Assembly (NCBI GenBank): GCA_964547565.1
Contig: CAZJOG010000002.1
Location: 1 to 39,690 of the forward strand
DNA: 39,690 bases
DNA from: an uncultured Desulfovibrionaceae bacterium
GTDB taxonomy: Bacteria; Desulfobacterota; Desulfovibrionia; Desulfovibrionales; Desulfovibrionaceae
Reading direction: 5' to 3'
Shown here: in pieces, positions 827-37,465 of the stretch
Position numbering within the stretch: the stretch's first letter is position 1
Layout of the letters: every line of letters begins with the position of its first letter
Notes under the pieces: model-generated
Told to the model about the DNA's origin: nothing
The model's input: only the letters and a program-made list of their open reading frames with translations
Databases searched by the model: none
Program-made: the position numbers and the translations under genes

Positions 827-855
827 CTTCTTTGCACATAAACAAAGGAGGCAAT

Positions 856-2445
856 ATGCCAAAGAATGCTCTTGTTATTATGTTTGACAGTCTGTCCTAC
901 CGGTATGTCGGCGCTTACGGAAACACATGGATCAAAACGCCCAATATGGATCGCCTGGCACGAGAAGGTGTTCTGTTTGAAGAAATGTATATTGAAGGTT
1001 TGCCCACCATACCGTGCAGACGTGCCATGCTTACAGGCCGCTACACACTTGCAGGTAAAGGCTGGTCGCCTTTGGAAATGGATGATACCAGCATCGCAGA
1101 TTTATGCTGGGGACGCCCCATTGACACAGCCATGATTTACGACTGCCCCATGTACCAGTTGCCTAAATTTGGATACACCCGAGGGTATGATAAAGCATGG
1201 TTTATCCATGGCCAGCTTCCGGACCAGTTTTATGCCCATGACCCTCTCTATCACCGTGATCCGCACGAGTTTATGGAAGATCACATACCAGCCAAAGCCA
1301 AAGCTGTACACGGCACCGAAGGTGTGGCGGATTTTGCCCTGCAGGAAGCCCGGGAAATGCTGGGCGAACGCCAATACTGGCGCACGGAATACGAACGCCC
1401 TGTCCATAAAACTGTACGTAAGGCTATAGAATATTTAGAACAGGTTGACCGCAATAAACAATTCTTTTTATGGGTAGATAGCTTTGACCCGCATGAGCCC
1501 TGGGATCCCCCATCTGTTTATACCAAAACACCATGCCCGTATGACCCGGAGTACAAAGGCAAAAATATTCCTACCCCCATTATGGGGCCGGCGGCTGTGT
1601 ATACAGAGCCGGAGTTAAACCACATCCGTATGCTTTATGCGGAACTTATCACCGTGTGTGACAATGCGCTGGGTATCCTTATGGACGCTGTACGCAGGCT
1701 GGGCTTTGAACAAGACACCCTGTTTATGATGGTGTCCGACCATGGCGAACCTATGGGCAATGCAGAACATGGACACGGTATACTGGCCACGTGCCGCCCC
1801 TGGCCATACGATGAACTTTCACACGCCCCCATGCTGCTGCGTGCGCCAGGTATAAAGGCCGGGCAACGTATTAAGGCTTTTGTGCAATCGTGTGACATTG
1901 CCCCCACCATTTGTGACTGGCTGGGTATTGGCGTTCACCCGGATATGACGGGGCAATCCCTTCTTCCTTTATGCCGCGGCGAAGTCAGCAAAGTGCGTGA
2001 TTTTGCCATTTCCGGTTACTACAAAGCTTCCTGGGCTATTTATACCCAAGACTGGTGCTTCATACACTGGCTTTCCCAGGATAAAGTTTTTGTAGAAAAC
2101 GAAGACGCCAATAACATTGACCATCTCAAAAAGATGGACAAACTGGAAGTAACAGGCACAGCCGCCATGATGACGGGGCTTATCAGTGTGAACCCCTTAA
2201 ATGCCGCAGATACTGCACAAGATGACCTAAGCCCAAGCTACCAGGAACGCATTGGCTTAAAAGAAGGAGAAGAACAATGGACATGCGGGGGCAATGCCAA
2301 AATGGAAGTGCCCGAAGCCGATGAGCTGTATAACCGGAAAACAGATCCTTACCAGCTTAACAATGTTGCCAACCAGCATCCTGATATATGCAAGGAACTT
2401 TACGCCACCCTGCGTACATTCATGGCGGATTTAAAGGAAAAATAG
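856..2445 (+). CDS. sulfatase-like hydrolase/transferase (alkaline-phosphatase superfamily), Thr at nucleophile position
   Basis: ATG 856 is preceded by AAAGGAGG (844-851); the TTG at 832 in the track is rejected. Motifs: IMFDSLSYRY, PTIPCRRAMLTGRY (T-x-P-x-R-x4-TGR), DSFDPHEPWDPP, MVSDHGEPMGNAEHGHG. Confidence 0.8.
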   Translation: MPKNALVIMFDSLSYRYVGAYGNTWIKTPNMDRLAREGVLFEEMYIEGLPTIPCRRAMLTGRYTLAGKGWSPLEMDDTSIADLCWGRPIDTAMIYDCPMYQLPKFGYTRGYDKAWFIHGQLPDQFYAHDPLYHRDPHEFMEDHIPAKAKAVHGTEGVADFALQEAREMLGERQYWRTEYERPVHKTVRKAIEYLEQVDRNKQFFLWVDSFDPHEPWDPPSVYTKTPCPYDPEYKGKNIPTPIMGPAAVYTEPELNHIRMLYAELITVCDNALGILMDAVRRLGFEQDTLFMMVSDHGEPMGNAEHGHGILATCRPWPYDELSHAPMLLRAPGIKAGQRIKAFVQSCDIAPTICDWLGIGVHPDMTGQSLLPLCRGEVSKVRDFAISGYYKASWAIYTQDWCFIHWLSQDKVFVENEDANNIDHLKKMDKLEVTGTAAMMTGLISVNPLNAADTAQDDLSPSYQERIGLKEGEEQWTCGGNAKMEVPEADELYNRKTDPYQLNNVANQHPDICKELYATLRTFMADLKEK

Positions 2446-4299: not shown

Positions 4300-4467
4300 A
4301 TGGAAAAAGAAGTCCAGCAACGTCTTCAATAGGTGAAGCTTTATGAGAAATCTGGAGATGCTGGTCTTGTTTGTCGGCGTTGTGGAATTTCTTGTCCAAC
4401 TCTGCGTAAATGGTGGAAACGGTATCAGGCCCAAGGCATTGAGGGCTTGAAGAGCCAAAGCCGTCGC
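4300..4467 (+). pseudogene. IS481/IS3-type transposase N-terminal HTH stub with in-frame TAG
   Basis: MEKEVQQRLQ-TAG(4330-4332)-VKLYEKSGDAGLVCRRCGISCPTLRKWWKRYQAQGIEGLKSQSRR. This is the typical transposase HTH_32-like leader (GIS..TL.KW.KRY...G..GL...SRR). No DDE catalytic part follows. Confidence 0.55.
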
Positions 4468-4539
4468 CTTGCTTTCTCTTTGGAGTATTCGCGCCTTAGT
4501 CAAATAAGGCGAAGTGAAATCAACTCAATAGATAGACAT

Positions 4540-5127
4540 TTATATATCTGTTTCTATAAAATGAACCACTGCATTATCCCAATACTTTTTATAAACTCTG
4601 CCGTCACTTCCATTAAGATTTAATTGGTACATCCTAAATGTAACCAAAAAATCTTTAGGTTGCCATTGTTCCTCATACGAATATTGGTATTTCATTCCCA
4701 ACTGCTTCATTACTGTTCCACTTCTCGGATTATTGATGTCATGTGTGGCTGTAATATATGGAACACCATCTTTTTTCAATTGTTCAATAACGGCTCTGCT
4801 TGCTTCTGTAACAATGCCCTTGTGCCAAAACTCCTTACAAAGTCCATAACCAAAATCATATCCCTCGCTCATGCTAACATTGACATAGCCAATGGGAAGG
4901 TTATTTTCTTTTAAACATATTGCGTAGTTATAGCCCCTCTTTTGGTTGTACTTGCATTCAAAGTGTTCCTTGTAAAAAAGTTTTGTTTCTTCCATGGTTC
5001 TTAACGGAAACCATGGTAAAAATCGGTTGACTTCACTATCACTAAAAATATTGTATAAGGCTTCCAAATCTTTTTTTGTAAACTTCCTTAAAATTATTCT
5101 GTCTGTTTTAAGTGTTGGTGTATTCAT
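4540..5127 (-). CDS. GNAT family N-acetyltransferase (RimJ/RimL-like)
   Basis: 195 aa. DRIILRKFTKKDLEALYNIFSDSEVNRFLPW... and GYGLCKEFWHKGIVTEASRAVIEQL...NPRSGTVMKQLGM match the Acetyltransf_3 pattern. The gene is visibly AT-rich relative to its neighbours. Confidence 0.8.
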   Translation of the reverse strand: MNTPTLKTDRIILRKFTKKDLEALYNIFSDSEVNRFLPWFPLRTMEETKLFYKEHFECKYNQKRGYNYAICLKENNLPIGYVNVSMSEGYDFGYGLCKEFWHKGIVTEASRAVIEQLKKDGVPYITATHDINNPRSGTVMKQLGMKYQYSYEEQWQPKDFLVTFRMYQLNLNGSDGRVYKKYWDNAVVHFIETDI

Positions 5128-21533: not shown

Positions 21534-22499
21534 CTACGCCACTTTCACGCGGCTAAGTTTTTCAACAGATCCCACGCCCTTTTTAGTAGAGCATTTTAGC
21601 GTTTGCTCTGTGACAAGCATACGTTTGTCACTGTCACCGCTTTTTGCCAGCTGATCTTCCTTTATAGGACGCAAAGTGAGGCGTTCAAAAATATCCTTCT
21701 GAAACACTAAAAGTTTATCGTACTCTTTACCATTGTCTGTTTCTGGTTTAATAAAACGCTCTGCTACAATAGCTACAGTACCCATATCCGTTTCAATAAC
21801 ACGCACAGAAAGGGTGATTTTCTTTTCTGTTGCATTTTGGTTAATAGTAAGACGGCCTTTATCTGTAAAATCAGAAATTTTCCGCTTTTGGTTCATGGGG
21901 GCGAGCACAGTGTCCGCTTCACAGCCAACGTCCCAGATACCCTGCATAACATCTAAAAGAATATCTTCTGTGATGGTATTGGTATCTGCAAAACTGCCTT
22001 CAAAATCAAAGTAAGATTCCGTGGCTTTATCTACAAAAGCAAAAGCACCGTCCATTTTGCGGGGAGTGCTGCCGGTGCCGGCCTGACGGATACCGTTTAA
22101 AAACGCCCACTCCAAATCTGTAGCCAGTTCTTTTGTTTTCAGTTTGCGAAGACGCGCCAGTTCACCTTTACGACCATATTTATCCACAACTTCCGCAGTA
22201 CCCGAAACGGAAAAATCCTTTTCAAAAATCTGGGTAAAGTTATCAAAACGGTCTGGAGCCAGGCCTTCTGTTGTCACCACATCAAAACCTTCCACATGCG
22301 CATTTTCACCAGGAGGGTTAAGTTCGTCTTCCAACCATTCTTCCTTACGTTGCTTGGCTGTGGCATTGTCCAGCATAGCGAGAAAAGGGGTTTTAGTGGG
22401 GGAAAAAAGCCCAATTCGATCAGAAACAGACGGTTTAAGACTGTTGTCATACTTTGGAGAATATGTTGTTGTTACAACACTTTTTACTTCAGTACCCAT
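21534..22499 (-). CDS. major capsid protein (HK97-fold, SU10/DUF5309-like)
   Basis: 321 aa, directly after the scaffold-like gene. The N-terminal SPTKTPFLAMLDNATAKQRKEEWLEDEL motif is recalled as typical for this capsid family. Confidence 0.6.
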   Translation of the reverse strand: MGTEVKSVVTTTYSPKYDNSLKPSVSDRIGLFSPTKTPFLAMLDNATAKQRKEEWLEDELNPPGENAHVEGFDVVTTEGLAPDRFDNFTQIFEKDFSVSGTAEVVDKYGRKGELARLRKLKTKELATDLEWAFLNGIRQAGTGSTPRKMDGAFAFVDKATESYFDFEGSFADTNTITEDILLDVMQGIWDVGCEADTVLAPMNQKRKISDFTDKGRLTINQNATEKKITLSVRVIETDMGTVAIVAERFIKPETDNGKEYDKLLVFQKDIFERLTLRPIKEDQLAKSGDSDKRMLVTEQTLKCSTKKGVGSVEKLSRVKVA

Positions 22500-23500: not shown

Positions 23501-23905
23501 TTACATCAGCCCCATTTTATGGAGCAGGTTAAGAACAAATGTTTTTACAGCAGGGGCTAAAAGATTAGCCACCATAAGCATGGCTGTTACAATGCCACCC
23601 ATGATAACAGCCTTTCCCTTGCTGTACCCATGCAGAACATCACGCTTTTCTTTTATCTCCTGGTAATTTCTTTCCAGAGATGCAAGCCTTGGTTCTGTAA
23701 GCCTTGTATTTTCCTCAAGCGTATGCAGGCGCTGCTCTGTTTGGCCAATGCGTTCCCCGTGGCGATAAAAACGCTTTTCCATTTCTTCAAAACGCCTGTT
23801 TACATCGGCTGTAAGTGTATCAAGACTCTTTTCCGTGCGTTTTGTGCTTTCTAAAAGCTCACCAAGAGTTTTCTTGATTTCCAGCACATGATCGATTAAT
23901 TCCAT
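23501..23905 (-). CDS. coiled-coil protein with C-terminal TM anchor (lysis-cassette accessory)
   Basis: 134 aa, heptad-like charged repeats, then AVIMGGIVTAMLMVANLLAPAV. TAATG overlap with the holin-like gene. Confidence 0.4.
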   Translation of the reverse strand: MELIDHVLEIKKTLGELLESTKRTEKSLDTLTADVNRRFEEMEKRFYRHGERIGQTEQRLHTLEENTRLTEPRLASLERNYQEIKEKRDVLHGYSKGKAVIMGGIVTAMLMVANLLAPAVKTFVLNLLHKMGLM

Positions 23906-24210
23906 TAAAAGCCCAACCCTAACATCCCTAAAAGTAGCGTAGTGATTTCCTTAAGTACGGAGGGCGGCAAAATCACATCTGGCCAGTAAGTGGCGATTAC
24001 ACTGCGCCCAACCACCTCCCAGGCAAACACAAGCGCCAGCACCCAGCCAAGAAAACCCCTCCAGGCTTTCAAACGTGTGTGTCCAGAAGTAGAAACTTCC
24101 GCCTCATTTATCCTCGCTTGCGCTTCATTCACTTTGCTACGGTCAGGAAGTACACGGTCAAAAAGTTTTCCAAAGGCATTCATAATGCCACCGAGAATAG
24201 GTATATTCAC
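23905..24210 (-). CDS. putative holin
   Basis: 101 aa, directly downstream of the endolysin. Amphipathic N-terminus GKLFDRVLPDRSKVNEAQARI, then hydrophobic segments FLGWVLALVFAWEVVG and TTLLLGMLGLGF. This resembles the 3-TM holin type. Confidence 0.5.
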   Translation of the reverse strand: MNIPILGGIMNAFGKLFDRVLPDRSKVNEAQARINEAEVSTSGHTRLKAWRGFLGWVLALVFAWEVVGRSVIATYWPDVILPPSVLKEITTLLLGMLGLGF

Positions 24211-24224
24211 ATCCCAAAACCTCC

Positions 24225-24803
24225 TTATGCCGCCAGCATGGCTTTTTTCAAATTATTGCAACGGTTCAGCCAGCCTGTAAGAAAGATTTTTTGGCTAGGC
24301 TCTGCATCTGCAAGTTGACGGAAAAACTTTCGCCTTTCTTCCACCAAAAATGAAATAAGCCGAGTATCCATACGCAGAAGCTCTGTTTTTGTTTTGAGCC
24401 CAAGGATACCATCCACTACAAGTAATGGTCTATCCTCCAGCGTGTTTACAGCCTTTTGTGCCATTTTTACGGCAGTTGCCTTGCCATGATTCACAGAAGC
24501 GTCAAACAGAAAAAGCTGTATAGCAGAGGGCAAGTTTTCTATACTTGGTATAGTATTCCAGAAATATTCCCTGTAAATTGCTTCTGCCTGCTTTCCCGTG
24601 AGACTTTTTACTGTCGCAATAGTTGCCGGGAGTTCTACCCCAATAGAGGCAAACCAAGGAAATTCCTCCTTCTGTATACCTTGCAAAAAGCGCAGGCTTA
24701 TGCCGTAATTTGTTGCCCCACCTTTATCTTTGGGGTTATTTACATACCCGCCTTCTGCGGGTTTGGTAAAAGCGTAGGCTTGCTGAAATCCTGCTACTTC
24801 CAT
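24225..24803 (-). CDS. endolysin, GH108 lysozyme-like N-terminus + peptidoglycan-binding C-terminus
   Basis: FTKPAEGGYVNNPKDKGGATNYGIS is the GH108 signature (EGGY..DP.D.GG.T..GI). C-terminal VVDGILGLKTKTEL is PG_binding_3-like. Confidence 0.85.
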   Translation of the reverse strand: MEVAGFQQAYAFTKPAEGGYVNNPKDKGGATNYGISLRFLQGIQKEEFPWFASIGVELPATIATVKSLTGKQAEAIYREYFWNTIPSIENLPSAIQLFLFDASVNHGKATAVKMAQKAVNTLEDRPLLVVDGILGLKTKTELLRMDTRLISFLVEERRKFFRQLADAEPSQKIFLTGWLNRCNNLKKAMLAA

Positions 24804-25027
24804 ACACCCTCCATAATATCCCCTATACGTTTTGCAAAAATGGCCGCATCAGACATAAAGATAGAAAGCATCACAAGCGCGCATTCCTGTTGTTCGTTTG
24901 TTTCCATGCTGCCATCTTCCTTTATTGTGTTTGTTGTAAGTGGTTGCGACAGTTTACACACATCGCACTCTGCACCAAAGGGACAAATTTTTTGCGTTGT
25001 TTGGTTCATAGCTGCAGCATTACTCAT
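24794..25027 (-). CDS. hypothetical small protein
   Basis: 77 aa. The ATG overlaps the rSAM stop by 8 nt and the stop overlaps the endolysin start. No clear SD. Contains CPFGAECDVC. Confidence 0.35.
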   Translation of the reverse strand: MSNAAAMNQTTQKICPFGAECDVCKLSQPLTTNTIKEDGSMETNEQQECALVMLSIFMSDAAIFAKRIGDIMEGVWK

Positions 25028-26243
25028 ATTTTATTGCAAAAATCTCTTCTGGCTCTTCGCCCGTTACAAGCCAGAATTTATAAAGAAACCGAGGCATAGA
25101 ATACGCATAGGACTGAGAACAAAAGGAAGCATTCGGTTCAATGTAGCTCAGGAAACACCTGTTGCAGGTAGCCCTAAACAAACAATCATGACAAACCTGA
25201 CGCTCATCATAAAACTCATGCCGCATTTTTAGTCGTTCTTCCCTGAACTGTTTGCGTAGGAGGGGGATGTTTTCATTACCCAAAAATGAACCGAGCTTTC
25301 TATTTCCATCATACTCAGGGCCATTTAGACAAGGATATACGTCACCATTTATGTAACAATGGGTTTGGGTTTCCTTCAAAGCCGTACAACCTTTTTCCCC
25401 AATGGTAACTTCCATTCCTTTGGGTGCGCCTATCATCCCAGCAAATTCAGGGAGTATTTTAATATGGTTGCGAATGAAGTGAAAGTTTTTTTGCGCTTGT
25501 TTCCACCCTTCCTGTGCATCTAATATATAACTGTCATCAAGCAGTTCGCCCGTGAATGGTATCGCAAAGACAAAGTGCGTAAAGTAGATAAGATGCTCCA
25601 AATCACGTCCAATTTTGTCATAAATAGGTTGAATGATGGTTTCCCAGTCCATCCAGTGCGTACTCCAGGTGATATTAAAGTTTACCTTACCAGGTAGGTT
25701 TTTTAACAGTTTCCGTATGCAACGCACCACATTTTTATTGTCCAGTACATCTATATTTCTATGGAATTTTGTACTTACTCCGTCATGGCTTATTTTCACC
25801 TCCACGTTTTTTTCAATAAGCCAATCTGAAATTTCATCTGTCAATAGGGATGCGTTTGTAATTGTTGCATAACGTATAGACGGAATGTGTTTTCGTATCG
25901 AAACATCAAAGTTTTTCATATCCTCAAAATGTAACAGAGGCTCACCACCAAAAAAAACAACATGTTTCAAATCGGGTACTTGCGTTACTATGGCATCTAC
26001 AAGTTTTTCAATTTGATCCAGAGGCGTAGGAGTAATTTTTTCCTTTAAATGCAGATTTGGAAAACAATAATTGCAACTGAAGTTACAATTATCGCTAAAT
26101 TTCAATATAAGGCTTACAGGGCGCTCTTTTTTATGCTCTTGCATATTGACAGGAGTAAAAAGCTTACCCTTTTCATCATAAAAACTATCAGTTTGTGGGC
26201 TGTATTGATAAATTTTTTCCTTAGTCTTTATTCCATAGATCAT
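25020..26243 (-). CDS. radical SAM enzyme with SPASM-like C-terminal auxiliary-cluster domain
   Basis: ATG 26243 lies 1 nt after the upstream TAA and is preceded by GGAGGA. CNFSCNYC (CX3CX2C) is at 26064..26087, GGEPLL downstream. C-terminal GCTALKETQTHCYINGDVYPC...VCHDCLFRATCNRC (25155..25193) plus a further Cys. Confidence 0.85.
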   Translation of the reverse strand: MIYGIKTKEKIYQYSPQTDSFYDEKGKLFTPVNMQEHKKERPVSLILKFSDNCNFSCNYCFPNLHLKEKITPTPLDQIEKLVDAIVTQVPDLKHVVFFGGEPLLHFEDMKNFDVSIRKHIPSIRYATITNASLLTDEISDWLIEKNVEVKISHDGVSTKFHRNIDVLDNKNVVRCIRKLLKNLPGKVNFNITWSTHWMDWETIIQPIYDKIGRDLEHLIYFTHFVFAIPFTGELLDDSYILDAQEGWKQAQKNFHFIRNHIKILPEFAGMIGAPKGMEVTIGEKGCTALKETQTHCYINGDVYPCLNGPEYDGNRKLGSFLGNENIPLLRKQFREERLKMRHEFYDERQVCHDCLFRATCNRCFLSYIEPNASFCSQSYAYSMPRFLYKFWLVTGEEPEEIFAIKYE

Positions 26244-26244
26244 G

Positions 26245-26877
26245 TTATTCCTCCAATATTCCCTTAAATTTTTCAAAGCCACGTGCAATACGTAGTATTT
26301 CTGTAATATCATCACTCTCTCGAAATATAACGAGGTCGACTTCATCTTTTGTAGATGCGCGTTTTATCTGTTCTATGACGTCAAAAAAATCAACCAATAA
26401 AAAATAATGCGCTTGAAGTATCGCTTCTTTTTGTTTTTGATTATCTAAACTTTCTGATTCTATATCCAGTGTTGTAGCAAGTTTTTCAGCGCATACAGCA
26501 TATCCAAGCTCTTCAAATGTAGGAAACGCATCGACTTGTGAATGATTCAAAAGAATTGGAATATCTATCAAGTTAACCGCAAACTTGACCGTGTTATTAA
26601 CAGAATTGATTGCGTTCGTATAACTAAGGAAAATTTTGTAGAGTTTTTTTTCCTTATATGTGTCAATATCATCAGATATAGGATTATTAGTATTAAGACT
26701 AAAAGAGCGCAGCGGTAGCTCTTCAGTAGGTTCGGGTATTAATTCTTCTTCAAGAAAAAATCCTTCTTTCTCCATTAACTGTATATCTTTGTTAAAGCCC
26801 TGCCAGACATTACCCTCACTATCTGTGTAAACTTCTGGGGCTTCAACAGTATTTCCGTCAATAACCTTTTTGTACAT
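26245..26877 (-). CDS. acidic hypothetical protein (partner of the rSAM/Cys-rich pair, or fibre-assembly-like)
   Basis: 210 aa, GAGGA upstream. The N-terminus MYKKVIDGNTVEAPEVYTDSEGNVWQGF resembles the openings of tail-fibre-assembly/DUF4376-type proteins (recalled, weak). The rest is acidic and helical. Confidence 0.4.
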   Translation of the reverse strand: MYKKVIDGNTVEAPEVYTDSEGNVWQGFNKDIQLMEKEGFFLEEELIPEPTEELPLRSFSLNTNNPISDDIDTYKEKKLYKIFLSYTNAINSVNNTVKFAVNLIDIPILLNHSQVDAFPTFEELGYAVCAEKLATTLDIESESLDNQKQKEAILQAHYFLLVDFFDVIEQIKRASTKDEVDLVIFRESDDITEILRIARGFEKFKGILEE

Positions 26878-26894
26878 AATTTAGTTGATCCTCA

Positions 26895-27209
26895 TCAATT
26901 ACAGCAAGTACACGCGCAGTCACAATAACAAACACAAACACAGTCACACTGACAACAAGCAGTATCATCTACAACTTGTGTTAATGCTGGTTTTACAAGC
27001 CCTCTGTTCGTACAATCCCCGTCACCTGTATTTTCCCAATTTGCTTGATTACTTGTGCTTTTTTGGCATGTTGCTGTGCGGTGTTGATAGCGCTGGTTAG
27101 TATTACCATATGGATACGTTGTTCCCCCCGTACAAGCACCGTTCGCCCATCCACCCGTTACCCAGCGAACAGAAAAATTAAAAAGCATGAGCAATTCCCG
27201 TATATCCAT
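26895..27209 (-). CDS. Cys-rich small protein with C-terminal (Cys-X)n tail; candidate rSAM substrate
   Basis: AAGGAG lies 7 nt upstream of ATG 27209, right after the tail-fibre TAA. 104 aa ending DDTACCQCDCVCVCYCDCACTCCN (Cys tract 26898..26957). Confidence 0.65.
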   Translation of the reverse strand: MDIRELLMLFNFSVRWVTGGWANGACTGGTTYPYGNTNQRYQHRTATCQKSTSNQANWENTGDGDCTNRGLVKPALTQVVDDTACCQCDCVCVCYCDCACTCCN

Positions 27210-27221
27210 AAATATTCTCCT

Positions 27222-28487
27222 TTAGTGTCCACGGATTGCACCTACAGCCCATGAGCTTGCAGACCGTAAGTATTGCCAGATTAAAATGTAGTGATAATTG
27301 GCGGGAAATGATGGAAGCCCACCTGTCAGGTTATTGGGTGTTCCAAAGTTTATAGCTCCACCTTGATAATGCATGTACACAACAATTTGATTATCTATTG
27401 CGACATCAACAGCAGGCAAAGAAAATGTTGTTGTGCCATTTATTGTTACGCGGTTCACTGTGTTTGTGGCTAAAGGAATAGTTCCACTTGTTGCACCGAT
27501 AATGTTTATCGCATCTCTGGCACGCAGCTTACCTGCGGCATCTACAAGCAAACCATCACCAACAAGTATTGGCCCCAAATTACTCGCACTTGCCGGTGTA
27601 GTAGCTTTTGTATGAGCAGTGTCTGCTAAGTCATACGCTGTTTTGACAGCATGAGCTGTTGCTGCTTCTTCTATGGAAGTTGAACTCACGCTGTCATTAA
27701 GCAACACAATACCAGCTGATTCTGTTGTGGCAAATGTGTTTGCTTTTATATTAGCAGTATTTGCCAGTTCATACGCTACTGCGGCATCATTAATTCCTTG
27801 GCTTGCTTTTGCGTCAATTCCCTCTGCTATTTCTTTTGCTTCTTCTGCTGTTGCCACAGCAGAAGCGGCATCTTCCATAGCTTCTGTTGCCTTAGCGTCA
27901 ATCCCATTTGCCACAGAAAGTGCATTTTCTGCCGTTGTTTCTGCCCTATTGGCTGTTGCTTCAGCCAAATCCGATTTTTTAAATGATTGAGTTGCCTTAT
28001 AGTCAACACCCTCTGCAATTTTCTTAGCTTCTGTAGACGTTATAAACGCATTATTCGCTGATTCAAACGCCATATTGGCTGTACTTGCAATACCTGTGGC
28101 AGTGACATTTGCACTTTCTGCTATATTTTTTGCATCTATTGATGTGCTTACAGCGTCATCTGCTTTTTGCTCTGCCGCAAAACTTACAGCCCGTATTTCC
28201 TCAATCACAGTAGCAGGAGCGGCCCCTATCATCCCTGGAGTTAAAGGGTCCGTGCCATCTGCGGTGTTGTGCATGGCGGCATGAAATGCTGGGGGCATTC
28301 CAATCATGCCGTATGGTTCTCCATTGACATATAAAAAGCCGTCCGTATGTACGGCCAAAAGCACCTTATCACCAGCAGGCGTTAACAACTCCAGCTGCTC
28401 TGTGCCAGCAGCAAACACAGTGCCGGCACCTCCTGGCAGAGCCTTTTTCAGATCACCATACTGACTTGGTTTTGTAAGGTTGCGCAT
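27222..28487 (-). CDS. tail fibre protein
   Basis: ATG 28487 lies 1 nt after the upstream TAG. Repeated coiled segments (AKKIAEGVDYKAT / ANGIDAKATEA / AKEIAEGIDAKAS). The phage-fibre repeat ESAGIVLLNDSVSSTSIEEAATAHAVKTAYDLA is present, followed by a beta-rich C-terminal domain. Confidence 0.8.
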   Translation of the reverse strand: MRNLTKPSQYGDLKKALPGGAGTVFAAGTEQLELLTPAGDKVLLAVHTDGFLYVNGEPYGMIGMPPAFHAAMHNTADGTDPLTPGMIGAAPATVIEEIRAVSFAAEQKADDAVSTSIDAKNIAESANVTATGIASTANMAFESANNAFITSTEAKKIAEGVDYKATQSFKKSDLAEATANRAETTAENALSVANGIDAKATEAMEDAASAVATAEEAKEIAEGIDAKASQGINDAAVAYELANTANIKANTFATTESAGIVLLNDSVSSTSIEEAATAHAVKTAYDLADTAHTKATTPASASNLGPILVGDGLLVDAAGKLRARDAINIIGATSGTIPLATNTVNRVTINGTTTFSLPAVDVAIDNQIVVYMHYQGGAINFGTPNNLTGGLPSFPANYHYILIWQYLRSASSWAVGAIRGH

Positions 28488-28488
28488 G

Positions 28489-28854
28489 CTATGCCCCTTG
28501 TTTTCGGGCTTCCTGCTTTTTTGCACGTTCCCCTGCGTAAATATCACTATTTACTTGGGCAAAAAGCGCATTTATGCCATCCATTTCACTCAGGACATCA
28601 CGGTGACGCTCCAAATTACCTTTGGCAAGTGCCAAAATTTCCAGCTTACGCGCAGTGATTAACCGGTTTTTGGCATTTTCCAGATACACATATTCCACAG
28701 ACTTCTGGAATGCCATTGCTTCTTCTGCCTGCTCAATAAGCATTTCATTGGAGAGAGGCGTTAAAACTTCCGGCAAAACCTCCACCTGGGTTTTCGAGGT
28801 TTCTTCCATGTTGGTTTGAGTTTCCATCTCCACGTCCTTTTTCTGTTTCGCCAC
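28489..28854 (-). CDS. hypothetical coiled-coil protein
   Basis: GTG 28854 lies 8 nt after GGGAGG. 121 aa. The first 110 nt overlap the portal ORF in another frame. Confidence 0.45.
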   Translation of the reverse strand: MAKQKKDVEMETQTNMEETSKTQVEVLPEVLTPLSNEMLIEQAEEAMAFQKSVEYVYLENAKNRLITARKLEILALAKGNLERHRDVLSEMDGINALFAQVNSDIYAGERAKKQEARKQGA

Positions 28855-30763
28855 TTTGCGAACCTCCCTGCATAGCTGCCATTTGCGCCATTTGTTGTGC
28901 CTGGGCTGCCTGCATCATTTGCTTTTGTTGTTCTCGCATTTGTAATTCTTCCACAGGATAGTGGTAAGGTTCCATAGGCACATTAAGAAGCTGTCCCATA
29001 CGGTCAAGCGCTTTTGCCACATGCCCCATATTGGCAAAGCCAGCAGGAACAGCCACACTTGCCGCAAACTGTACATATTCTTTCAGCACAAGCGCCTGCT
29101 GCTGTTTTTCTTGCGGCCCTACGCCAAGTTCAATATTCACAGTAAAGTCATTGGCATAGTCCTCTACATCTATTTTATTACCTTTGCGCATAAAATAATC
29201 TATATATTCAGCACCAAACACTTTAAACTGAACAACCATATCTTCTATGGCGTCTTTGAATGTTTCTGCAATAACATTTGCCATATATTTTTGACGTTGT
29301 TGCGAAAGCGATGCTATTATACCAATACCTGTAGCAGTTTTATTTAAGCTGTTTGCATCAATACCCTGGTTATAGCGTGTAACGCCACTTATGCGTTCTG
29401 CTCTTCCCTCCAGCATTTCCATGCTTTTTATAATAGAAGCATCCAGTGGAGGTGGTTTTACAATATCATAAAGTTTTTGCTGCACAGTGGAAGCACCGGC
29501 TTTCAGAACATCCCCTATGTAACGTTCATCCCACTCATTAATAAGCACTTCATCTGAGGTAATAAGGTTGCCATACACACTCATGGCTGTTGCGTCATTC
29601 CAAAGACGTGTAAGCTGGGTATGCTCAATTTGTATGGGTTCCAGTGAGGCAGGATACGCTTTGCCTTCAAACTTAAAGCTGTCTTCAATAGCACGCGCCA
29701 CACGGAAAGGGGGTCTGCCATACGGATTTTCTTCTATGGCAAGCACAACGTCATGCGCCAGGCGGATAATGACAGGTTCTAAAAGGCCATCCCTGTCTAT
29801 ATCCAGCCCGGTATAGATCTCCCACAACTCTACGGGGGCAGACGGCCTGGTAAGACCTTCCTCGAAGTCAGGGCTTATTTCCACTTCCTCTTTTTGTGGG
29901 TCAGGCAGGCCAGCAGCGTCATACCGATAATCGTCGTCATCTCTTTCTTCGTCATGATCCACCCATTCCAGATTTTTGGAAATTTTGGCATAGCTGCCTT
30001 TTCTATAACGGCCGGAAGCTTCACCCTTTTTAATATCTTCCAGACGTTTGTGGCTTCTGTGGGCAACAATACGGCAATCGTCTAATTCCGGCCCATCTGG
30101 CGAATAAAAAAAGTCTTCCGGGTCAACTGCCAGAATACGTGGGCCAATAAACACTGGTTCCTGTTTTATAAGTTTCACGTTTTTGAGGCTCTGCACCACT
30201 TCGGTAGCTTGCCCCAAAGCATCCATTACGGACACACGTTCTTCTGTGAATTTTGCCAGCTCCCAACCTTCTGTAAGTTTCTGCTCCAGTATAGCAAAAT
30301 CTTGTGCAGAAACTGCCTCTATCCGCTCGGAAGCTGTACGCCTGTATTCTTCATCCCAAAAAACTTTCACCACTCCGTAATGGTATTTCAGACAGCAATC
30401 CAACCAGGTGCGTAGTTCCCTTGCGCCATACTGGGCTTCAAAAATATTCCAGCGCACAAGTTTACGAACTCTGTCACCGGCTTCTGGGTTATCGCCTATT
30501 TTAACATCAAAAAAATCCGGAGAGGTAAAAAGCTGGTCTAAGCCAACCTTCATACCTTCTACGGATTCAAACACAGTAGGAGAGACCACGCTGGAGAAAC
30601 CAGGGCGGTTCATGCCTTTTATGCCGGCTGCCTCTTTGCTCATGGAATAAAGCAACAGGTACTGCTTGCGCTGTTCGCGCAAAATATCCTGCCAATCTTT
30701 TGCCCGCTGCAAATCCGGCGTGATAATGTTTTTGATTGTATCGTCAGATATGGAAACTTCCAC
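28745..30763 (-). CDS. portal protein
   Basis: 672 aa, GTG start. Size, position near TerL, and an acidic/Gln-rich C-terminal tail (QQKQMMQAAQAQQMAQMAAMQGG) are typical of portals. No motif-level proof. Confidence 0.6.
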   Translation of the reverse strand: MEVSISDDTIKNIITPDLQRAKDWQDILREQRKQYLLLYSMSKEAAGIKGMNRPGFSSVVSPTVFESVEGMKVGLDQLFTSPDFFDVKIGDNPEAGDRVRKLVRWNIFEAQYGARELRTWLDCCLKYHYGVVKVFWDEEYRRTASERIEAVSAQDFAILEQKLTEGWELAKFTEERVSVMDALGQATEVVQSLKNVKLIKQEPVFIGPRILAVDPEDFFYSPDGPELDDCRIVAHRSHKRLEDIKKGEASGRYRKGSYAKISKNLEWVDHDEERDDDDYRYDAAGLPDPQKEEVEISPDFEEGLTRPSAPVELWEIYTGLDIDRDGLLEPVIIRLAHDVVLAIEENPYGRPPFRVARAIEDSFKFEGKAYPASLEPIQIEHTQLTRLWNDATAMSVYGNLITSDEVLINEWDERYIGDVLKAGASTVQQKLYDIVKPPPLDASIIKSMEMLEGRAERISGVTRYNQGIDANSLNKTATGIGIIASLSQQRQKYMANVIAETFKDAIEDMVVQFKVFGAEYIDYFMRKGNKIDVEDYANDFTVNIELGVGPQEKQQQALVLKEYVQFAASVAVPAGFANMGHVAKALDRMGQLLNVPMEPYHYPVEELQMREQQKQMMQAAQAQQMAQMAAMQGGSQSGETEKGRGDGNSNQHGRNLENPGGGFAGSFNASLQ

Positions 30764-34487: not shown

Positions 34488-34916
34488 TTACCAGAACTTT
34501 TGGAGTGGGGTAAACCCCGCTTCAATAATTCCCGTTCCATTTGCAAAATTCCCTGTCGGTACATCTAAGAATTTAGCCTGTGCCTTACCGTAGGTGCATT
34601 TCACAATGCGCCCTTCTTCAAGCATTTTTTGCGCCATATCTTCCATTCTATTCCGTGCAATAAGCATAAGCTCTGTTGGCAATTCTTCGCGTCTGTCATA
34701 AAGCCCTGTTCCCCCTGTTTTTGTAAACGGCCTGCCAACGGATGCCGCTTCTTTCACAATGTTCACAAGCAAGTCTTCCAAGAACCAAGACTGCTTTGCG
34801 CCATCTGTAAGATAGGTCTCCACTATACGCAAAAGGCCGCTTGTTTTGTCGCGTAACAGGGTTTTTGTGTTTGTATCTGCTGGGGCGTTGCTTTTCACCA
34901 CAGCACATTCAAACAC
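34488..34916 (-). CDS. hypothetical protein (early/late junction)
   Basis: 142-aa ORF, 22-nt overlap with the upstream primase-helicase end. No motif recognised. Confidence 0.45.
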   Translation of the reverse strand: MFECAVVKSNAPADTNTKTLLRDKTSGLLRIVETYLTDGAKQSWFLEDLLVNIVKEAASVGRPFTKTGGTGLYDRREELPTELMLIARNRMEDMAQKMLEEGRIVKCTYGKAQAKFLDVPTGNFANGTGIIEAGFTPLQKFW

Positions 34917-35995
34917 ATCTTTTCGATTATACCGTCTACATTTTTTTGCACACGCTTCATGGCTTCTGGGCTAGCCTGCCATATAGCAAGGGCACACCTT
35001 ACACCGTCCACCAGGGCAGAAGTGCCGCGTATAGCGTTTCGTGCCGCTTCTGGCCCTTTATCATTTTTGCTTGGCTTACTCATGTGGTGGGCAACAAGCA
35101 CACACGCCCCAGTTTCTTCTGCCAAAGAAGCTAACAAGGCATTGGTGTATTGCCCGGCTTGCGGGTCTGCGTTTACATCCACAGCCACAAAGGAAGCCAG
35201 AGGGTCAATGTTGATGAATTTTAGATTGGGTATACGTCTCAATTGTCTTTTAATACTCGTAAAGGTTTCTGTTTCACAAAAGCCATCCAGCCCTTTGTTG
35301 ACTACAAGCTGGATGGGGCCGCCAGCGTTGGGCAAGGGAATAATAAATAATCTGCCTTCTGCGTCTCTTCTCCTTTGTCCTGTAGGGTCAAGAGCCTGAA
35401 GGCGCTGGTGTATGCTTTCGCGGGAATCTTCCGCAGTAAAAATAACCGCCGCCCCGTGTTCGTTTACTTCTTTTCCCAGCCAGACATTATCCGCGTTAAG
35501 GTTTATGGGTGAAGCCTTCCCTGCTACTGTAAGGGCCAGATCAAGGGCAAGCATACCCTTGCCTGTGCCACCGCTTGCCGCCAGTAAACACGGCGCAGCC
35601 AGTGGAAGGGTTTCCTTTACCAGCCATTTTGTTTCCGGTGCTTCCCCGGAAAAAAGACGTATACCCCAATCCGCGATGCGTGGGCCTTTGCCTGCCACAG
35701 CGGCCTGTAAGCGCACGGCCTCCAAACCTTCTTTCTGGTGCAGGTCGTTAAAGTCTGTAGGGTTGCCAGACACATCTTTGAACTCTGGAAAAACCACCTC
35801 CGCACCCACCTCACGGGCGGTTTTGTAAGCGGCTTCCAGGCCTGGATTAAACGGCATCCCATTTTTTTTATTCCATTGGTCATTATCTGCGGCGATAACA
35901 AGGTGTGCCGCTGGCATGGCGCTGCGTATTTCTTGCGCTACCGGGGCAAGGTTGCCGCAATCCATAGCGGCAACCACGCTTGATCCCGTGGCCAT
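34895..35995 (-). CDS. primase-helicase, C-terminal part (Toprim + RecA-like/AAA_25 ATPase) of a frameshifted gene
   Basis: The frame continues upstream of the listed ATG as GEGDIVYICEGYATAASLY (Toprim E motif). Then IAADNDQWN (Toprim DxD) and P-loop LLAASGGTGKGMLALDLAL. Confidence 0.75.
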   Translation of the reverse strand: MATGSSVVAAMDCGNLAPVAQEIRSAMPAAHLVIAADNDQWNKKNGMPFNPGLEAAYKTAREVGAEVVFPEFKDVSGNPTDFNDLHQKEGLEAVRLQAAVAGKGPRIADWGIRLFSGEAPETKWLVKETLPLAAPCLLAASGGTGKGMLALDLALTVAGKASPINLNADNVWLGKEVNEHGAAVIFTAEDSRESIHQRLQALDPTGQRRRDAEGRLFIIPLPNAGGPIQLVVNKGLDGFCETETFTSIKRQLRRIPNLKFINIDPLASFVAVDVNADPQAGQYTNALLASLAEETGACVLVAHHMSKPSKNDKGPEAARNAIRGTSALVDGVRCALAIWQASPEAMKRVQKNVDGIIEKMCLNVLW

Positions 35996-36717
35996 GTACA
36001 GAGAGGCAGCCGTGGCGTATCCCTCGCAAATATAAACAATGTCTCCTTCACCTGTAAGCCAAAAAAATTGCCCTTCTTTTCCATGCCTGGCAAAAAGCGT
36101 TTTTCGCCACTTGAAAAAATTCTTTGAAGGCCGCGTAATTCTCCGGCTTTGTTGATAATCGGTACAAGAAGCGTATCGTCCTTGATTCTAAGCCCAAAGG
36201 AAGGTACGCCCTTCGCAGACAAATAGCTGTGCATCGTGGTCTTGGCTATTGGTACCGGCTGTGCTTCCGCCCAAGTGGCAACTGCGCTTTTGGCGGCTTT
36301 GTCTGCCTCGTCTCGTTTCTCCTTGGTCCGTGCCAACGCGGACTGCCCCAGATACTCACGAAACTTTTGTTCTGCTTCAAGTTTAATCGCGTTACTTTTG
36401 TTGCTCAGGGTTACATATTCTGGCATATCCCGAAGCGAAAAAAACGTATGCACTTCGGATTCTTCTTTCCAAGAACCAAACTGTCCACCTGGGAACGTGT
36501 CTGGAAAAAACACATACCACCCAGATTCTTTTCCCCACCGCTCATCTGCCAGTTGGAAGCGGTGAATTTTTCCATCCGCTAAAATTTCAGGTGTTCCATA
36601 GCCTGCTTCCGCAATACGAGAGCGGAAAGCCTGTATAGCCCTGAATAAGTCAACCTTTGGCGCAAGAGATAGCTGGTCTCCTGTGCCACCCTGCGGGACA
36701 TGATTGAGGTCGAGCAT
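35938..36717 (-). CDS. primase-helicase, N-terminal part (P4-type primase N-domain) of a frameshifted gene
   Basis: ATG 36717 follows GGGGAG, 10 nt after the upstream stop. ...ILADGKIHRFQLADERWGKESGWYVFFPDTFPGGQFGSWKE is typical of P4/plasmid primases. The frame is lost at the A7 run 36061..36067. Confidence 0.7.
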   Translation of the reverse strand: MLDLNHVPQGGTGDQLSLAPKVDLFRAIQAFRSRIAEAGYGTPEILADGKIHRFQLADERWGKESGWYVFFPDTFPGGQFGSWKEESEVHTFFSLRDMPEYVTLSNKSNAIKLEAEQKFREYLGQSALARTKEKRDEADKAAKSAVATWAEAQPVPIAKTTMHSYLSAKGVPSFGLRIKDDTLLVPIINKAGELRGLQRIFSSGEKRFLPGMEKKGNFFGLQVKETLFIFARDTPRLPLCTWPRDQAWLPLWIAATLPR

Positions 36718-36727
36718 GGCTCTCCCC

Positions 36728-37465
36728 TTATGCCCAGCAGGTCTGGGAATAGGAACACATACGGCACGAGAGGCTGGCCTCGCTTCCCGCGCCTGTGGGA
36801 ACCCATTCCCCATGCTTACAGGCTTCTAAAACACGCCTGCCACGGGTGATCAGCCCTTGGAAAGTATGCTCTTCAAAACCCACAAGCTCGTGGTGCAGCT
36901 CCAGAGTATCGGCATTAACAAAGGTGATCAGCCCTTTATCAAGGCCCATACCGCCCATATAAAGCTGCATTTGGGCAAAATATTTGGGGTACGCATGGCG
37001 CACCTTCTCTTTTACAACCTGCCGCCAGCCCTTGGCATTTACACATTTGTTTTCCCAGAGGGCAGGCAGGGGAAAAGGAGAAGCCTCAGCACCGCGCCAC
37101 AGGGCAAAGATACCATCTAAATGCCCTTGGATATTATTTTCGCAGAAGGAAACCTTAAACTGCGTGTGAGTGGCGGGATCTTCTGTAAGAAGCACAAAGC
37201 CGGCAGAAGCAAACCAATCGGCGGCACGGGCTTCCGCATCTACTCCCCGCGCAAAAATGCGGCGTACACGGGGCGGAAAATCATCTGGTATATCTATCCT
37301 GAACACGGTTTTCAGGGCTTCGTACTGCACGGCACGTTCGCACTCATGCCCAAGAATGGAACAACCAAGATAATTGCGCTTTTCTTCCGTTTTTTCAGCA
37401 ATAGCTTTATCAAGAAGCCAGTTTATCCTGTCCGACAAAGCTGTTGAGGAGTTCAAATTTATCAT
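36728..37465 (-). CDS. PD-(D/E)XK nuclease, Cas4/RecB-like with Cys cluster
   Basis: 245 aa. N-terminal GCSILGHECERAV, HLDG, WENKC (E-x-K), C-terminal C...CRMCSYSQTC. This is the Cas4-like 4-Cys arrangement. Confidence 0.65.
   Translation of the reverse strand: MINLNSSTALSDRINWLLDKAIAEKTEEKRNYLGCSILGHECERAVQYEALKTVFRIDIPDDFPPRVRRIFARGVDAEARAADWFASAGFVLLTEDPATHTQFKVSFCENNIQGHLDGIFALWRGAEASPFPLPALWENKCVNAKGWRQVVKEKVRHAYPKYFAQMQLYMGGMGLDKGLITFVNADTLELHHELVGFEEHTFQGLITRGRRVLEACKHGEWVPTGAGSEASLSCRMCSYSQTCWA

Follow-up and report, generated by a model that had tools for sequence, protein, structure and literature searches.

The chemistry of radical-SAM peptide maturases has so far been associated with secreted natural products and a few enzyme cofactors. 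In ranthipeptide systems, such as PapB with its substrate PapA (freyrasin) and NxxcB, a radical-SAM/SPASM enzyme is paired with a Cys-rich C-terminal core in which Asp and Asn serve as thioether acceptors, and PapB is reported to use a C-terminal carboxylate as a recognition element (PMC12373016). The sactipeptide/SCIFF maturase CteB (5WHY/5WGG) forms thioethers from Cys in a Cys-rich C-terminal region, and carries an N-terminal leader-recognition (RRE) domain. The anaerobic sulfatase-maturating enzyme (anSME; anSMEcpe, 4K36-4K39) has no RRE and instead acts on a Cys in a full-length protein, whereas QhpD installs several Cys-Asp/Glu thioethers in QhpC, the small gamma subunit of quinohemoprotein amine dehydrogenase. 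A two-residue-periodic motif of a different kind is found at the distal end of a trimeric phage fibre, namely the H-x-H iron ladder of T4 gp37 in the long-tail-fibre tip, which needs no modifying enzyme.

In the locus examined here, a small prophage protein ending in an alternating cysteine ladder is encoded between a tail-fibre gene and a radical-SAM enzyme gene, and the same trio recurs in many unrelated phages, often with the ladder fused to the end of the fibre. This points to an apparently undescribed enzymatic modification of phage tail-fibre tips, although the modification itself is inferred from sequence and gene order alone.

The cysteine-ladder gene and its genomic context

The window, that is, the whole stretch of DNA analysed, is a complete contig of 39,690 nucleotides (CAZJOG010000002.1 of assembly GCA_964547565.1, from an uncultured Desulfovibrionaceae bacterium). 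Host genes lie on the left and include a sulfatase (832..2445), MFS transporters, a sigma-54 activator and a GNAT acetyltransferase, while a prophage lies on the right, from about 11.4 kb to a CI-like repressor at 38.3 kb. On the minus strand the order is large terminase, SU10-type portal, a 121-aa protein, tail fibre, ladder protein, a 210-aa orphan, radical-SAM enzyme, a 77-aa protein, a GH108 endolysin and a holin. The features of interest are as follows.

26895..27209, minus strand: gene for the 104-aa Cys-ladder protein, stop codon included
26898..26957, minus strand: ladder tract, codons 85-104, CCQCDCVCVCYCDCACTCCN
27216..27222, minus strand: Shine-Dalgarno sequence AAGGAGA, 6 nt before the ATG, overlapping the last base of the TAA stop of the fibre gene
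27222..28487, minus strand: tail-fibre gene, 421 aa from the ATG that matches the relative's start, whose distal ~215 codons (27222..27867) belong to a swapped module
26245..26877, minus strand: 210-aa acidic orphan protein, in the position held by non-homologous accessory proteins in other ladder loci
25020..26243, minus strand: radical-SAM/SPASM enzyme, 407 aa
24995..27867, minus strand: module absent from a related Desulfovibrionaceae prophage, comprising the distal fibre domain, the ladder gene, the 210-aa gene and the radical-SAM gene

The ladder protein translates to MDIRELLMLFNFSVRWVTGGWANGACTGGTTYPYGNTNQRYQHRTATCQKSTSNQANWENTGDGDCTNRGLVKPALTQVVDDTACCQCDCVCVCYCDCACTCCN. A preliminary description, made from the sequence alone, had reported a 104-aa protein with 11 cysteines in strict alternating register in its last 20 residues, three further Cys upstream (GACTGG, TATCQK, GDCTNR), a neighbouring fibre gene, and a tract that is coding rather than a slippage microsatellite. 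These observations are confirmed, with the refinement that nine of the 11 Cys are in strict C-X register and the remainder arise from a doubled Cys at each end. The DNA pattern (TGYNNN)8TGY occurs once in the window (26904..26954, minus strand) and in 0 of 100 dinucleotide-preserving shuffles. Tandem Repeats Finder detected only a weak 6-nt period (78% matches, score 30), so this is not a clean microsatellite. Further, the intervening codons differ, the Cys codons mix TGT and TGC, the ribosome-binding site is strong, and the annotated frame has the best codon-usage score of the six frames over the first 84 codons. A non-coding repeat is excluded. The fibre gene is identified by PF03406 (6.7e-11) and by tail-fibre PHROGs.

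The operon is tightly packed. The fibre stop is followed after 12 nt by the ladder gene, after a further 17 nt by the 210-aa gene, and after 1 nt by the radical-SAM gene, which overlaps the next gene. The radical-SAM gene thus lies 550 nt downstream of the ladder gene on the same strand. A promoter and terminator scan gave no excess of matches above chance. GC content falls to 0.31-0.35 at 25700..26900, across the 210-aa gene and half of the radical-SAM gene, against about 0.45 in the flanks. The ladder ORF is in the same frame as the fibre ORF, 4 codons after its stop, which raised the possibility of stop-codon readthrough fusing the two. However, only 3 of 6 loci with short ladder proteins, counting the window, are in frame, against 1 in 3 expected by chance, and readthrough is not claimed.

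The radical-SAM/SPASM enzyme

The 407-aa enzyme carries the CX3CX2C cluster motif (CNFSCNYC) and scores 63.4 bits against PF04055, above the gathering cutoff of 29.5, placing it in the radical-SAM superfamily. Its C-terminal region carries the seven-Cys SPASM pattern for two auxiliary clusters (canonically CX9-15GX4C ... CX2CX5CX3C ... C), reading C-x13-GDVYPC ... CHDCLFRATCNRC ... C. The residues C286-x13-G300-x4-C305, C351-x2-C354-x5-C360-x2-C363 and C375 are invariant in one alignment, and most are invariant in another, with one spacing differing from the canonical motif (x2 instead of x3). It should, however, be noted that the Pfam SPASM model did not fire on the window protein. Among phage relatives, the SPASM model TIGR04085 passes for three of four scanned together (30.5-34.5 bits; the fourth scores 26.7 against a cutoff of 27) and for the enzyme of a further viral locus, L123 (39.1 bits).

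The closest curated families are all Cys-directed peptide or protein maturases, namely PapB, lachnocin maturase, QhpD, CcpM, SCIFF maturase and anSME. None comes near its NCBIfam cutoff: the best, PapB, gives 74.8 bits against 340, and the same holds for five clade relatives. An AF2 model built on 33 sequences (pLDDT 68.5, pTM 0.75) best matches the sactionine synthase CteB (E 1.6e-12) and anSME (TM-score 0.64 normalised to anSME), followed by TigE, ChlB, SuiB and SkfB. Only about 50 residues precede the cluster motif, against about 100 in CteB, so a full leader-recognition domain appears to be missing. These residues carry a beta-hairpin-like motif (YQYSPQTDSFYDEKGKLF) that also aligns in clade relatives, and no separate PqqD-like protein was detected in the Pfam and NCBIfam searches. 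Nor was any leader peptidase, transporter or immunity gene found between the fibre and the endolysin with Pfam, NCBIfam or PHROG models.

Homologue searches and one related prophage

The ladder protein has no homologue in a word-index search of 5.8e9 proteins, in tblastn against phage genomes or in an exact-sequence look-up, and a full phmmer scan of 1.84e9 representatives gave only three repeat-protein artefacts matching residues 12-67. No Pfam or NCBIfam model, including any metallothionein family or curated precursor family, matched it. The 210-aa protein likewise has no homologue in the 5.8-billion-protein index. Profiles of the accessory-protein clusters of other ladder loci gave nothing convincing for it (best E 0.026 at 3.1 bits), hhalign against the family of gp029 of Achromobacter phage JWF gave a probability of 0.2, and a single-sequence AF2 model was too poor to use (pLDDT 44.6). 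For the distal fibre domain, only the generic fibre repeat matched in phage genomes and nothing matched in metagenome contigs. No near-identical DNA was found in phage genomes.

One related prophage (L002) was found, in a Desulfovibrionaceae MAG, with a portal 82% identical to that of the window. By blastn, synteny runs up to window position 27867, in the middle of the fibre gene, and resumes at 24995, the 77-aa gene. The distal fibre domain and the three-gene cassette are therefore one replaceable block. In its place L002 has a different fibre tip rich in H-T-H repeats (SHTHASAAHTHAFTGTAHTHTF). A tail-assembly chaperone and what looks by eye like a RelE/RelB toxin-antitoxin pair lie further downstream in L002, between the 72-aa gene and the endolysin.

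Coupling of the enzyme clade to C-X-C ladders

In contrast to the ladder protein and the 210-aa protein, the enzyme has relatives. A tblastn search of phage genomes identified a homologue in Achromobacter phage JWF, where the order is tail fibre gp028, 240-aa gp029, radical-SAM gp030, gp031 and endolysin. Here gp028 reads ...LVKPRQNCNCDCNCNCSC, followed directly by FPAGTMVLMADG..., a C-X-C ladder preceding a Hint domain whose first Cys is the last ladder Cys (Hom_end_hint starts at residue 308). Conversely, a scan of IMG/VR for the bare ladder DNA pattern gave 120 hits, of which 119 were microsatellites or off-frame. The only one with a radical-SAM neighbour, L123, was a genuine coding ladder, ...YYTNCNCNCDCNCNCTCGDSDTDG, lying after a fibre gene. 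As a way of finding ladders, the bare pattern was useful only as a negative control.

An alignment of the three enzymes retrieved 80 viral contigs. Of 83 loci in all, 45 have an ORF with a ladder of at least 4 Cys on the same strand within 5 kb upstream of the enzyme. Among the 53 loci with at least 3 kb of upstream sequence, 35 have a strict ladder at or near the C-terminus, and the count rises to 42 when other Cys-periodic or Cys-rich C-termini, such as CSYCSYCSYC, are included, against 0 of 53 for opposite-strand ORFs over the same span. The link is seen in 11 of 20 enzyme clusters defined at 50% identity, so it is not one lineage counted many times. In a phmmer search against the phage-locus enzymes and a set of cellular hits, the top 50 listed domain rows of the window enzyme all belong to phage-locus enzymes (86-68 bits, spanning the SPASM region), ahead of the best cellular homologue at 65.5 bits. 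However, the window enzyme is only about 25-30% identical to the clade.

The ladder proteins are tail fibres, or small proteins encoded directly after a fibre gene. The ladder protein of locus L202 is a 646-aa T7-type fibre with a Phage_T7_tail N-terminal domain, collagen repeats and a PTR repeat, ending ...NCNCGTFNCYTNCNCDCNCDCNCACND. That of L203 is, by eye, a collagen-like fibre, and that of L165 resembles the N-terminus of JWF gp028 and hits tail-fibre PHROGs. JWF gp028, which is T4 gp36-like, also hits tail-fibre families. In Ralstonia phage RSP15, gp048 is annotated as a side tail fibre and ends ...NCQCGN, followed by two accessory genes and the enzyme. A family of about 200 aa ends ...NCNCGSFNCRTNCNCNCACAC...; a search for isolates carrying it found none. 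Finally, short ladder proteins of 72-115 aa (loci L178, L143, L163, L183, L192 and L123) lie directly after a large fibre gene, the layout of the window. In the three tested with Pfam (L178, L143 and L163) that fibre ends in a Peptidase_S74 intramolecular chaperone domain.

Across 41 distinct ladder proteins, the ladder has 4-12 Cys and in most sits 0-7 residues from the C-terminus, the exceptions being one 21-residue tail and the roughly 180-aa self-cleaving Hint domains, with the last ladder Cys as their first Cys, that directly follow the ladder in three proteins. The X residues are N (83), A (73), D (31) and rarely anything else. Proteins that are 82-92% identical upstream of the ladder have 7 or 8 ladder Cys, and their X residues and synonymous sites differ, but no Cys is ever lost. 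Whether relatives keep the C-X periodicity while X varies had been proposed as a test in the preliminary description; relatives, defined through the enzyme, do so, and length changes come in whole C-X units, as expected for a selected coding feature.

Between the ladder gene and the enzyme, other loci carry non-homologous accessory proteins. One family without a recognised function occurs in 46 loci. Another weakly matches 2OG-Fe(II) oxygenase models (below the Pfam cutoff; PHROG phrog_81 at 6e-8), and two further families look similar by eye only. Extra radical-SAM enzymes and a gp029-like family also occur. No curated NCBIfam, Pfam or PHROG model covers any ladder protein, and no equivalog covers the enzymes.

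The window's ladder protein fits the module in its position. It has nine Cys in register with 2 residues after the strict ladder, lies directly downstream of a fibre gene, and is followed within 5 kb by a clade enzyme on the same strand. However, its X residues (Q, D, V, V, Y, D, A, T) are atypical for the family. By eye, YQHRTATC resembles YQSRTVQNC, and ELLMLFNFSVRWVTGG resembles DLYNLNYFRGRPRYVGG, of the NCNCG ladder family, the largest. Nevertheless, the first 84 residues scored no better against a profile of this family than 2000 shuffles, and the resemblance was rejected as evidence of homology.

Interpretation

The most economical reading, held with moderate confidence, is that the 104-aa protein is a divergent, free-standing version of a C-terminal fibre-tip module, and that its Cys ladder is the substrate of the radical-SAM/SPASM enzyme encoded two genes downstream. 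In this view, the three genes and the distal fibre domain form a receptor-binding-tip module of a prophage, probably of a Desulfovibrionaceae host, that is expressed with the late structural and lysis genes. The analysis establishes that the gene is real, that its operon is tightly packed, that the enzyme belongs to a phage clade systematically coupled to C-terminal C-X-C ladders, and that in relatives these ladders are the ends of tail fibres. In contrast, the enzyme-substrate relationship in this window, the chemistry, incorporation into the virion and any metal binding by the ladder remain inferences from sequence, with no experimental support in this or any other phage.

The proposed mechanism is inferred throughout from the nearest characterised enzymes. 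In an extended strand every thiol of the ladder would face one side. The enzyme, which appears to have at most a truncated RRE and is about the size of anSME, would thread the C-terminal strand into its active site. The 5'-deoxyadenosyl radical would abstract a hydrogen from an X residue, or from a Cys C-beta, and a neighbouring Cys thiolate held on an auxiliary cluster would close a thioether. Repeating this along the ladder, within a chain or between chains of a trimer, would give a covalently stapled tip resistant to reduction and proteases, which would cap or extend the fibre. Thioether formation, as in CteB, PapB, QhpD and NxxcB, is the preferred option because N, D and A are typical acceptor residues in such systems and QhpD is a precedent for stapling a small structural subunit. 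An anSME-like Cys oxidation is a second possible chemistry. The conserved placement of the ladder at a free C-terminus, natural or produced by Hint cleavage, may relate to substrate recognition.

Of the readings offered in the preliminary description, two are each half right, and its interpretation is partly supported. The core of a radical-SAM-modified peptide is supported by context, although this does not appear to be a classical leader-plus-core secreted peptide, as the cassette has no protease, transporter or immunity gene. A metal-ladder structural element next to the fibre, by analogy with T4, is supported by comparison as far as a structural element of the fibre is concerned, since in relatives the ladder is the C-terminus of bona fide tail fibres and L002 carries an H-x-H-rich tip at the same place; metal binding remains an analogy that is compatible with this module swap. 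The third, a metallothionein-like chelator, has no support beyond composition and would not explain the conserved enzyme partner.

A broader possibility, put forward tentatively and judged slightly less likely than not, is that many tailed phages build the distal end of their tail fibres with RiPP-type chemistry, a C-terminal Cys-X ladder, fused to the fibre or supplied as a small subunit, being covalently cross-linked or otherwise converted by a phage-encoded radical-SAM/SPASM enzyme. Literature searches found nothing that links tail fibres, Cys ladders and radical-SAM/SPASM enzymes, although most subscription journals lay outside their coverage and a prior description cannot be ruled out. 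If correct, chemistry so far associated with secreted natural products and a few enzyme cofactors would also be used by phages to finish a virion structural protein. This would add a new determinant of fibre assembly, stability and perhaps host range, which would need to be co-transferred when fibres are swapped in phage engineering. It would also define a large uncurated enzyme clade with a very simple, repetitive, leader-independent substrate, attractive for enzymology and peptide stapling, and could explain why radical-SAM genes annotated as sulfatase maturases or hypothetical proteins sit in the tail modules of isolates such as JWF and RSP15. Cultured phages carry the system, which makes it directly testable.

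Alternative explanations

The cassette could instead be a free-standing RiPP moron, the 104-aa protein being a precursor with a long leader and a Cys-rich core that is converted to a ranthipeptide or sactipeptide-like product, released at lysis or by the lysogen, and acting as a bacteriocin or signal; its position next to the fibre would then be incidental. The closest characterised enzyme families are indeed RiPP maturases, the cassette has a low GC content like a moron, and the ladder protein is here separate from the fibre, so that a diffusible product is not excluded. Further, the best cellular homologue of the enzyme (P0003) sits in a classical RiPP cluster with a 32-aa precursor also ending in a doubled Cys (...ACCNS), an ABC transporter and a C39 peptidase. 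However, the cassette of the window has no protease, transporter or immunity gene, lies inside the late structural and lysis operon, and was swapped together with the distal fibre domain. The enzyme also scores higher against phage enzymes whose ladders are fused to tail fibres of 200-650 aa, the precursor would have an 84-aa Gly/Thr/Asn-rich region unlike known leaders, and the enzyme appears to have no complete RRE. This reading is considered unlikely.

Similarly unlikely is a purely metal-binding element, either a metallothionein-like chelator or a metal-thiolate staple along a trimer axis analogous to T4 gp37, in which the ladder would not be covalently modified and the enzyme would do something else. 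C-X-C is the hallmark metal-thiolate motif, alternating residues place all thiols on one face of a strand, and the H-T-H repeats of L002 occupy the equivalent position. Nevertheless, this gives no reason for the conserved pairing with a radical-SAM/SPASM enzyme across 11 divergent enzyme lineages. As metal binding and enzymatic modification are not mutually exclusive, it partly overlaps the preferred reading. Least likely is that the enzyme is an auxiliary anSME-like gene acting on host proteins, with the ladder ORF unrelated or spurious. Although its predicted fold and size resemble anSME, the JWF homologue was once annotated as an anaerobic sulfatase-maturating enzyme and a sulfatase gene lies in the host flank, the NCBIfam anSME model scores only 37.8 bits against a cutoff of 349. 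The strong statistical coupling of the enzyme clade to ladder ORFs, the ribosome-binding site and coding frame of the ladder ORF, and the conservation of ladder Cys through synonymous change in relatives also argue against it.

Comparison with described systems

The pairing of a radical-SAM/SPASM enzyme with a Cys-rich C-terminal core is shared with the ranthipeptide systems. Asp and Asn, the acceptors there, are among the commonest X residues in the wider ladder family, and the use of a C-terminal carboxylate by PapB echoes the C-terminal position of the ladder. However, there is no CX3D repeat, and the substrate would be a 104-aa protein, or in relatives a full tail fibre, encoded in a phage late operon. 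CteB is the top structural match and the second-best PDB sequence match, but a full counterpart of its RRE appears to be missing and the SCIFF maturase model scores 43.8 bits against a cutoff of 425. The equal-best structural match, anSMEcpe, is of similar size, but the ladder contains no sulfatase CxPxR/CxAxR target motif. QhpD, among the top NCBIfam hits, offers the precedent of a small structural subunit as substrate, although its scores are far below the cutoff, no dehydrogenase genes are present here, and its substrate has no C-X-C ladder. The T4 gp37 ladder shares the two-residue periodicity at a fibre end, with His rather than Cys.

The nearest systems are uncharacterised phage loci: JWF gp028-gp030, RSP15 gp048-gp045 and about 45 IMG/VR contigs. 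These share with the window the gene order (a fibre with, or followed by, a C-terminal C-X-C ladder, then accessory protein(s) and a radical-SAM/SPASM enzyme, often then lysis genes) and a homologous enzyme. The ladder and accessory proteins of the window are not homologous to theirs, its X residues are more hydrophobic, its ladder is among the longest (second only to one 12-Cys ladder among the 41), and many of the other loci also encode 2OG-Fe(II) oxygenase-like proteins or extra radical-SAM enzymes. A radical-SAM/SPASM enzyme with a Cys-rich C-terminal substrate is already known, whereas the proposed biological setting (virion fibre maturation) and the proposed substrate architecture (a strict C-X ladder, apparently without a leader) appear to be new. 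Within that module, the example in the window is an orphan in every part except the enzyme.

Gene organization around the ladder cassette

The features of the window that bear on the organization of the cassette and its flanks are as follows.

832..2445 (+), sulfatase gene in the host flank
4333..4623 (+), transposase-like HTH ORF in the host flank
23501..30763 (−), tail fibre, ladder cassette and lysis module
24794..25027 (−), gene for a 77-aa protein
27207..27224 (−), junction between the fibre stop and the ladder start
34895..36813 (−), two overlapping ORFs matching a DNA primase family

The TAA stop of the fibre ORF and the ATG of the ladder ORF lie in the same reading frame, only four codons apart (...RGH, stop, RRIFMDIREL...). 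Readthrough of the single stop would give a fibre-ladder fusion like those in other phages. However, counting the window, 3 of 6 short-ladder loci are in frame with their fibre, against 1 in 3 expected by chance, so the arrangement is not significant.

Between the radical-SAM gene and the endolysin lies the gene for a 77-aa protein (CPFGAECDVCKLS...EC). As it is conserved (80% DNA identity) in the relative that lacks the cassette, it is not part of the module. The wider gene order is unusual, in that the tail fibre, the ladder cassette and the whole lysis module (endolysin, holin and a coiled-coil 134-aa protein) lie between the portal gene and the major capsid gene (21534..22499). Further, the two overlapping ORFs at 34895..36813, of 291 aa and 366 aa, match consecutive parts of the same DNA primase family (phrog_2249, positions 36-198 and 221-318), which could reflect a split or frameshifted primase/helicase gene. 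Although the product of the sulfatase gene in the host flank would need a formylglycine-generating maturase, no evidence was found that links it to the prophage radical-SAM enzyme.

Accessory proteins and ladder architecture in other loci

Relevant genes in other loci, designated here by L numbers, are as follows.

L123 2118..2827 (+); L132 2036..2419 (+) and 4604..4930 (+), small proteins with Cys-every-fifth repeats
L189 5946..6611; L179 5330..5953; L155 1206..2087; L205 5108..5938, proteins resembling 2OG-Fe(II) oxygenases
L003 1721..3172; L144 2023..2841; L167 5204..6007; L147 2..1438, ladder followed by a Hint domain

In L123 and L132, small proteins next to the enzyme carry Cys-every-fifth repeats (CNQVQCNQVKCSNVQCSQVHC, CTTVQCNECTLC) ahead of a short C-X-C end. 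No NCBIfam family, CefA-type or other, matched these proteins. L123 also has three radical-SAM genes in a row.

Many ladder loci encode proteins resembling 2OG-Fe(II) oxygenases between the ladder gene and the radical-SAM gene. This suggests a second, oxygen-dependent modification, perhaps Asn/Asp hydroxylation. It should, however, be noted that only the L189 family matched curated models, and weakly (PF13759 at 3.6e-5, below its cutoff; phrog_81 at 6e-8), while the others are read by eye. In several phages the ladder is followed by a Hint (intein-like) domain of about 180 aa that starts at the last ladder Cys, which implies autoproteolytic exposure of the ladder as the mature C-terminus.

Comparison with a related prophage and a cellular RiPP cluster

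Three features are relevant in the related Desulfovibrionaceae prophage (L002) and in the locus of the best cellular homologue of the window enzyme (L001).

L002 6774..8168 (+), tail fibre
L002 8919..9461 (−), putative toxin-antitoxin pair
L001 9838..9936 (+), gene for a 32-aa precursor

The pair in L002 looks by eye like a RelE/YafQ toxin and a RelB/DinJ antitoxin, and lies between the tail-assembly chaperone and the endolysin; the window has no counterpart. The fibre of L002 occupies the position that in the window holds the distal fibre domain plus the ladder cassette. Although no Pfam model matched this protein, it ends with H-T-H repeats (SHTHASAAHTHAFTGTAHTHTF), read by eye as a T4 gp37-style H-x-H motif. 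The best cellular homologue of the window enzyme, in turn, lies in a classical RiPP cluster with an ABC transporter, a C39 peptidase and Agr-like quorum-sensing genes, and the 32-aa precursor of this cluster ends ...GTSACCNS, which resembles the ...CTCCN end of the window protein.
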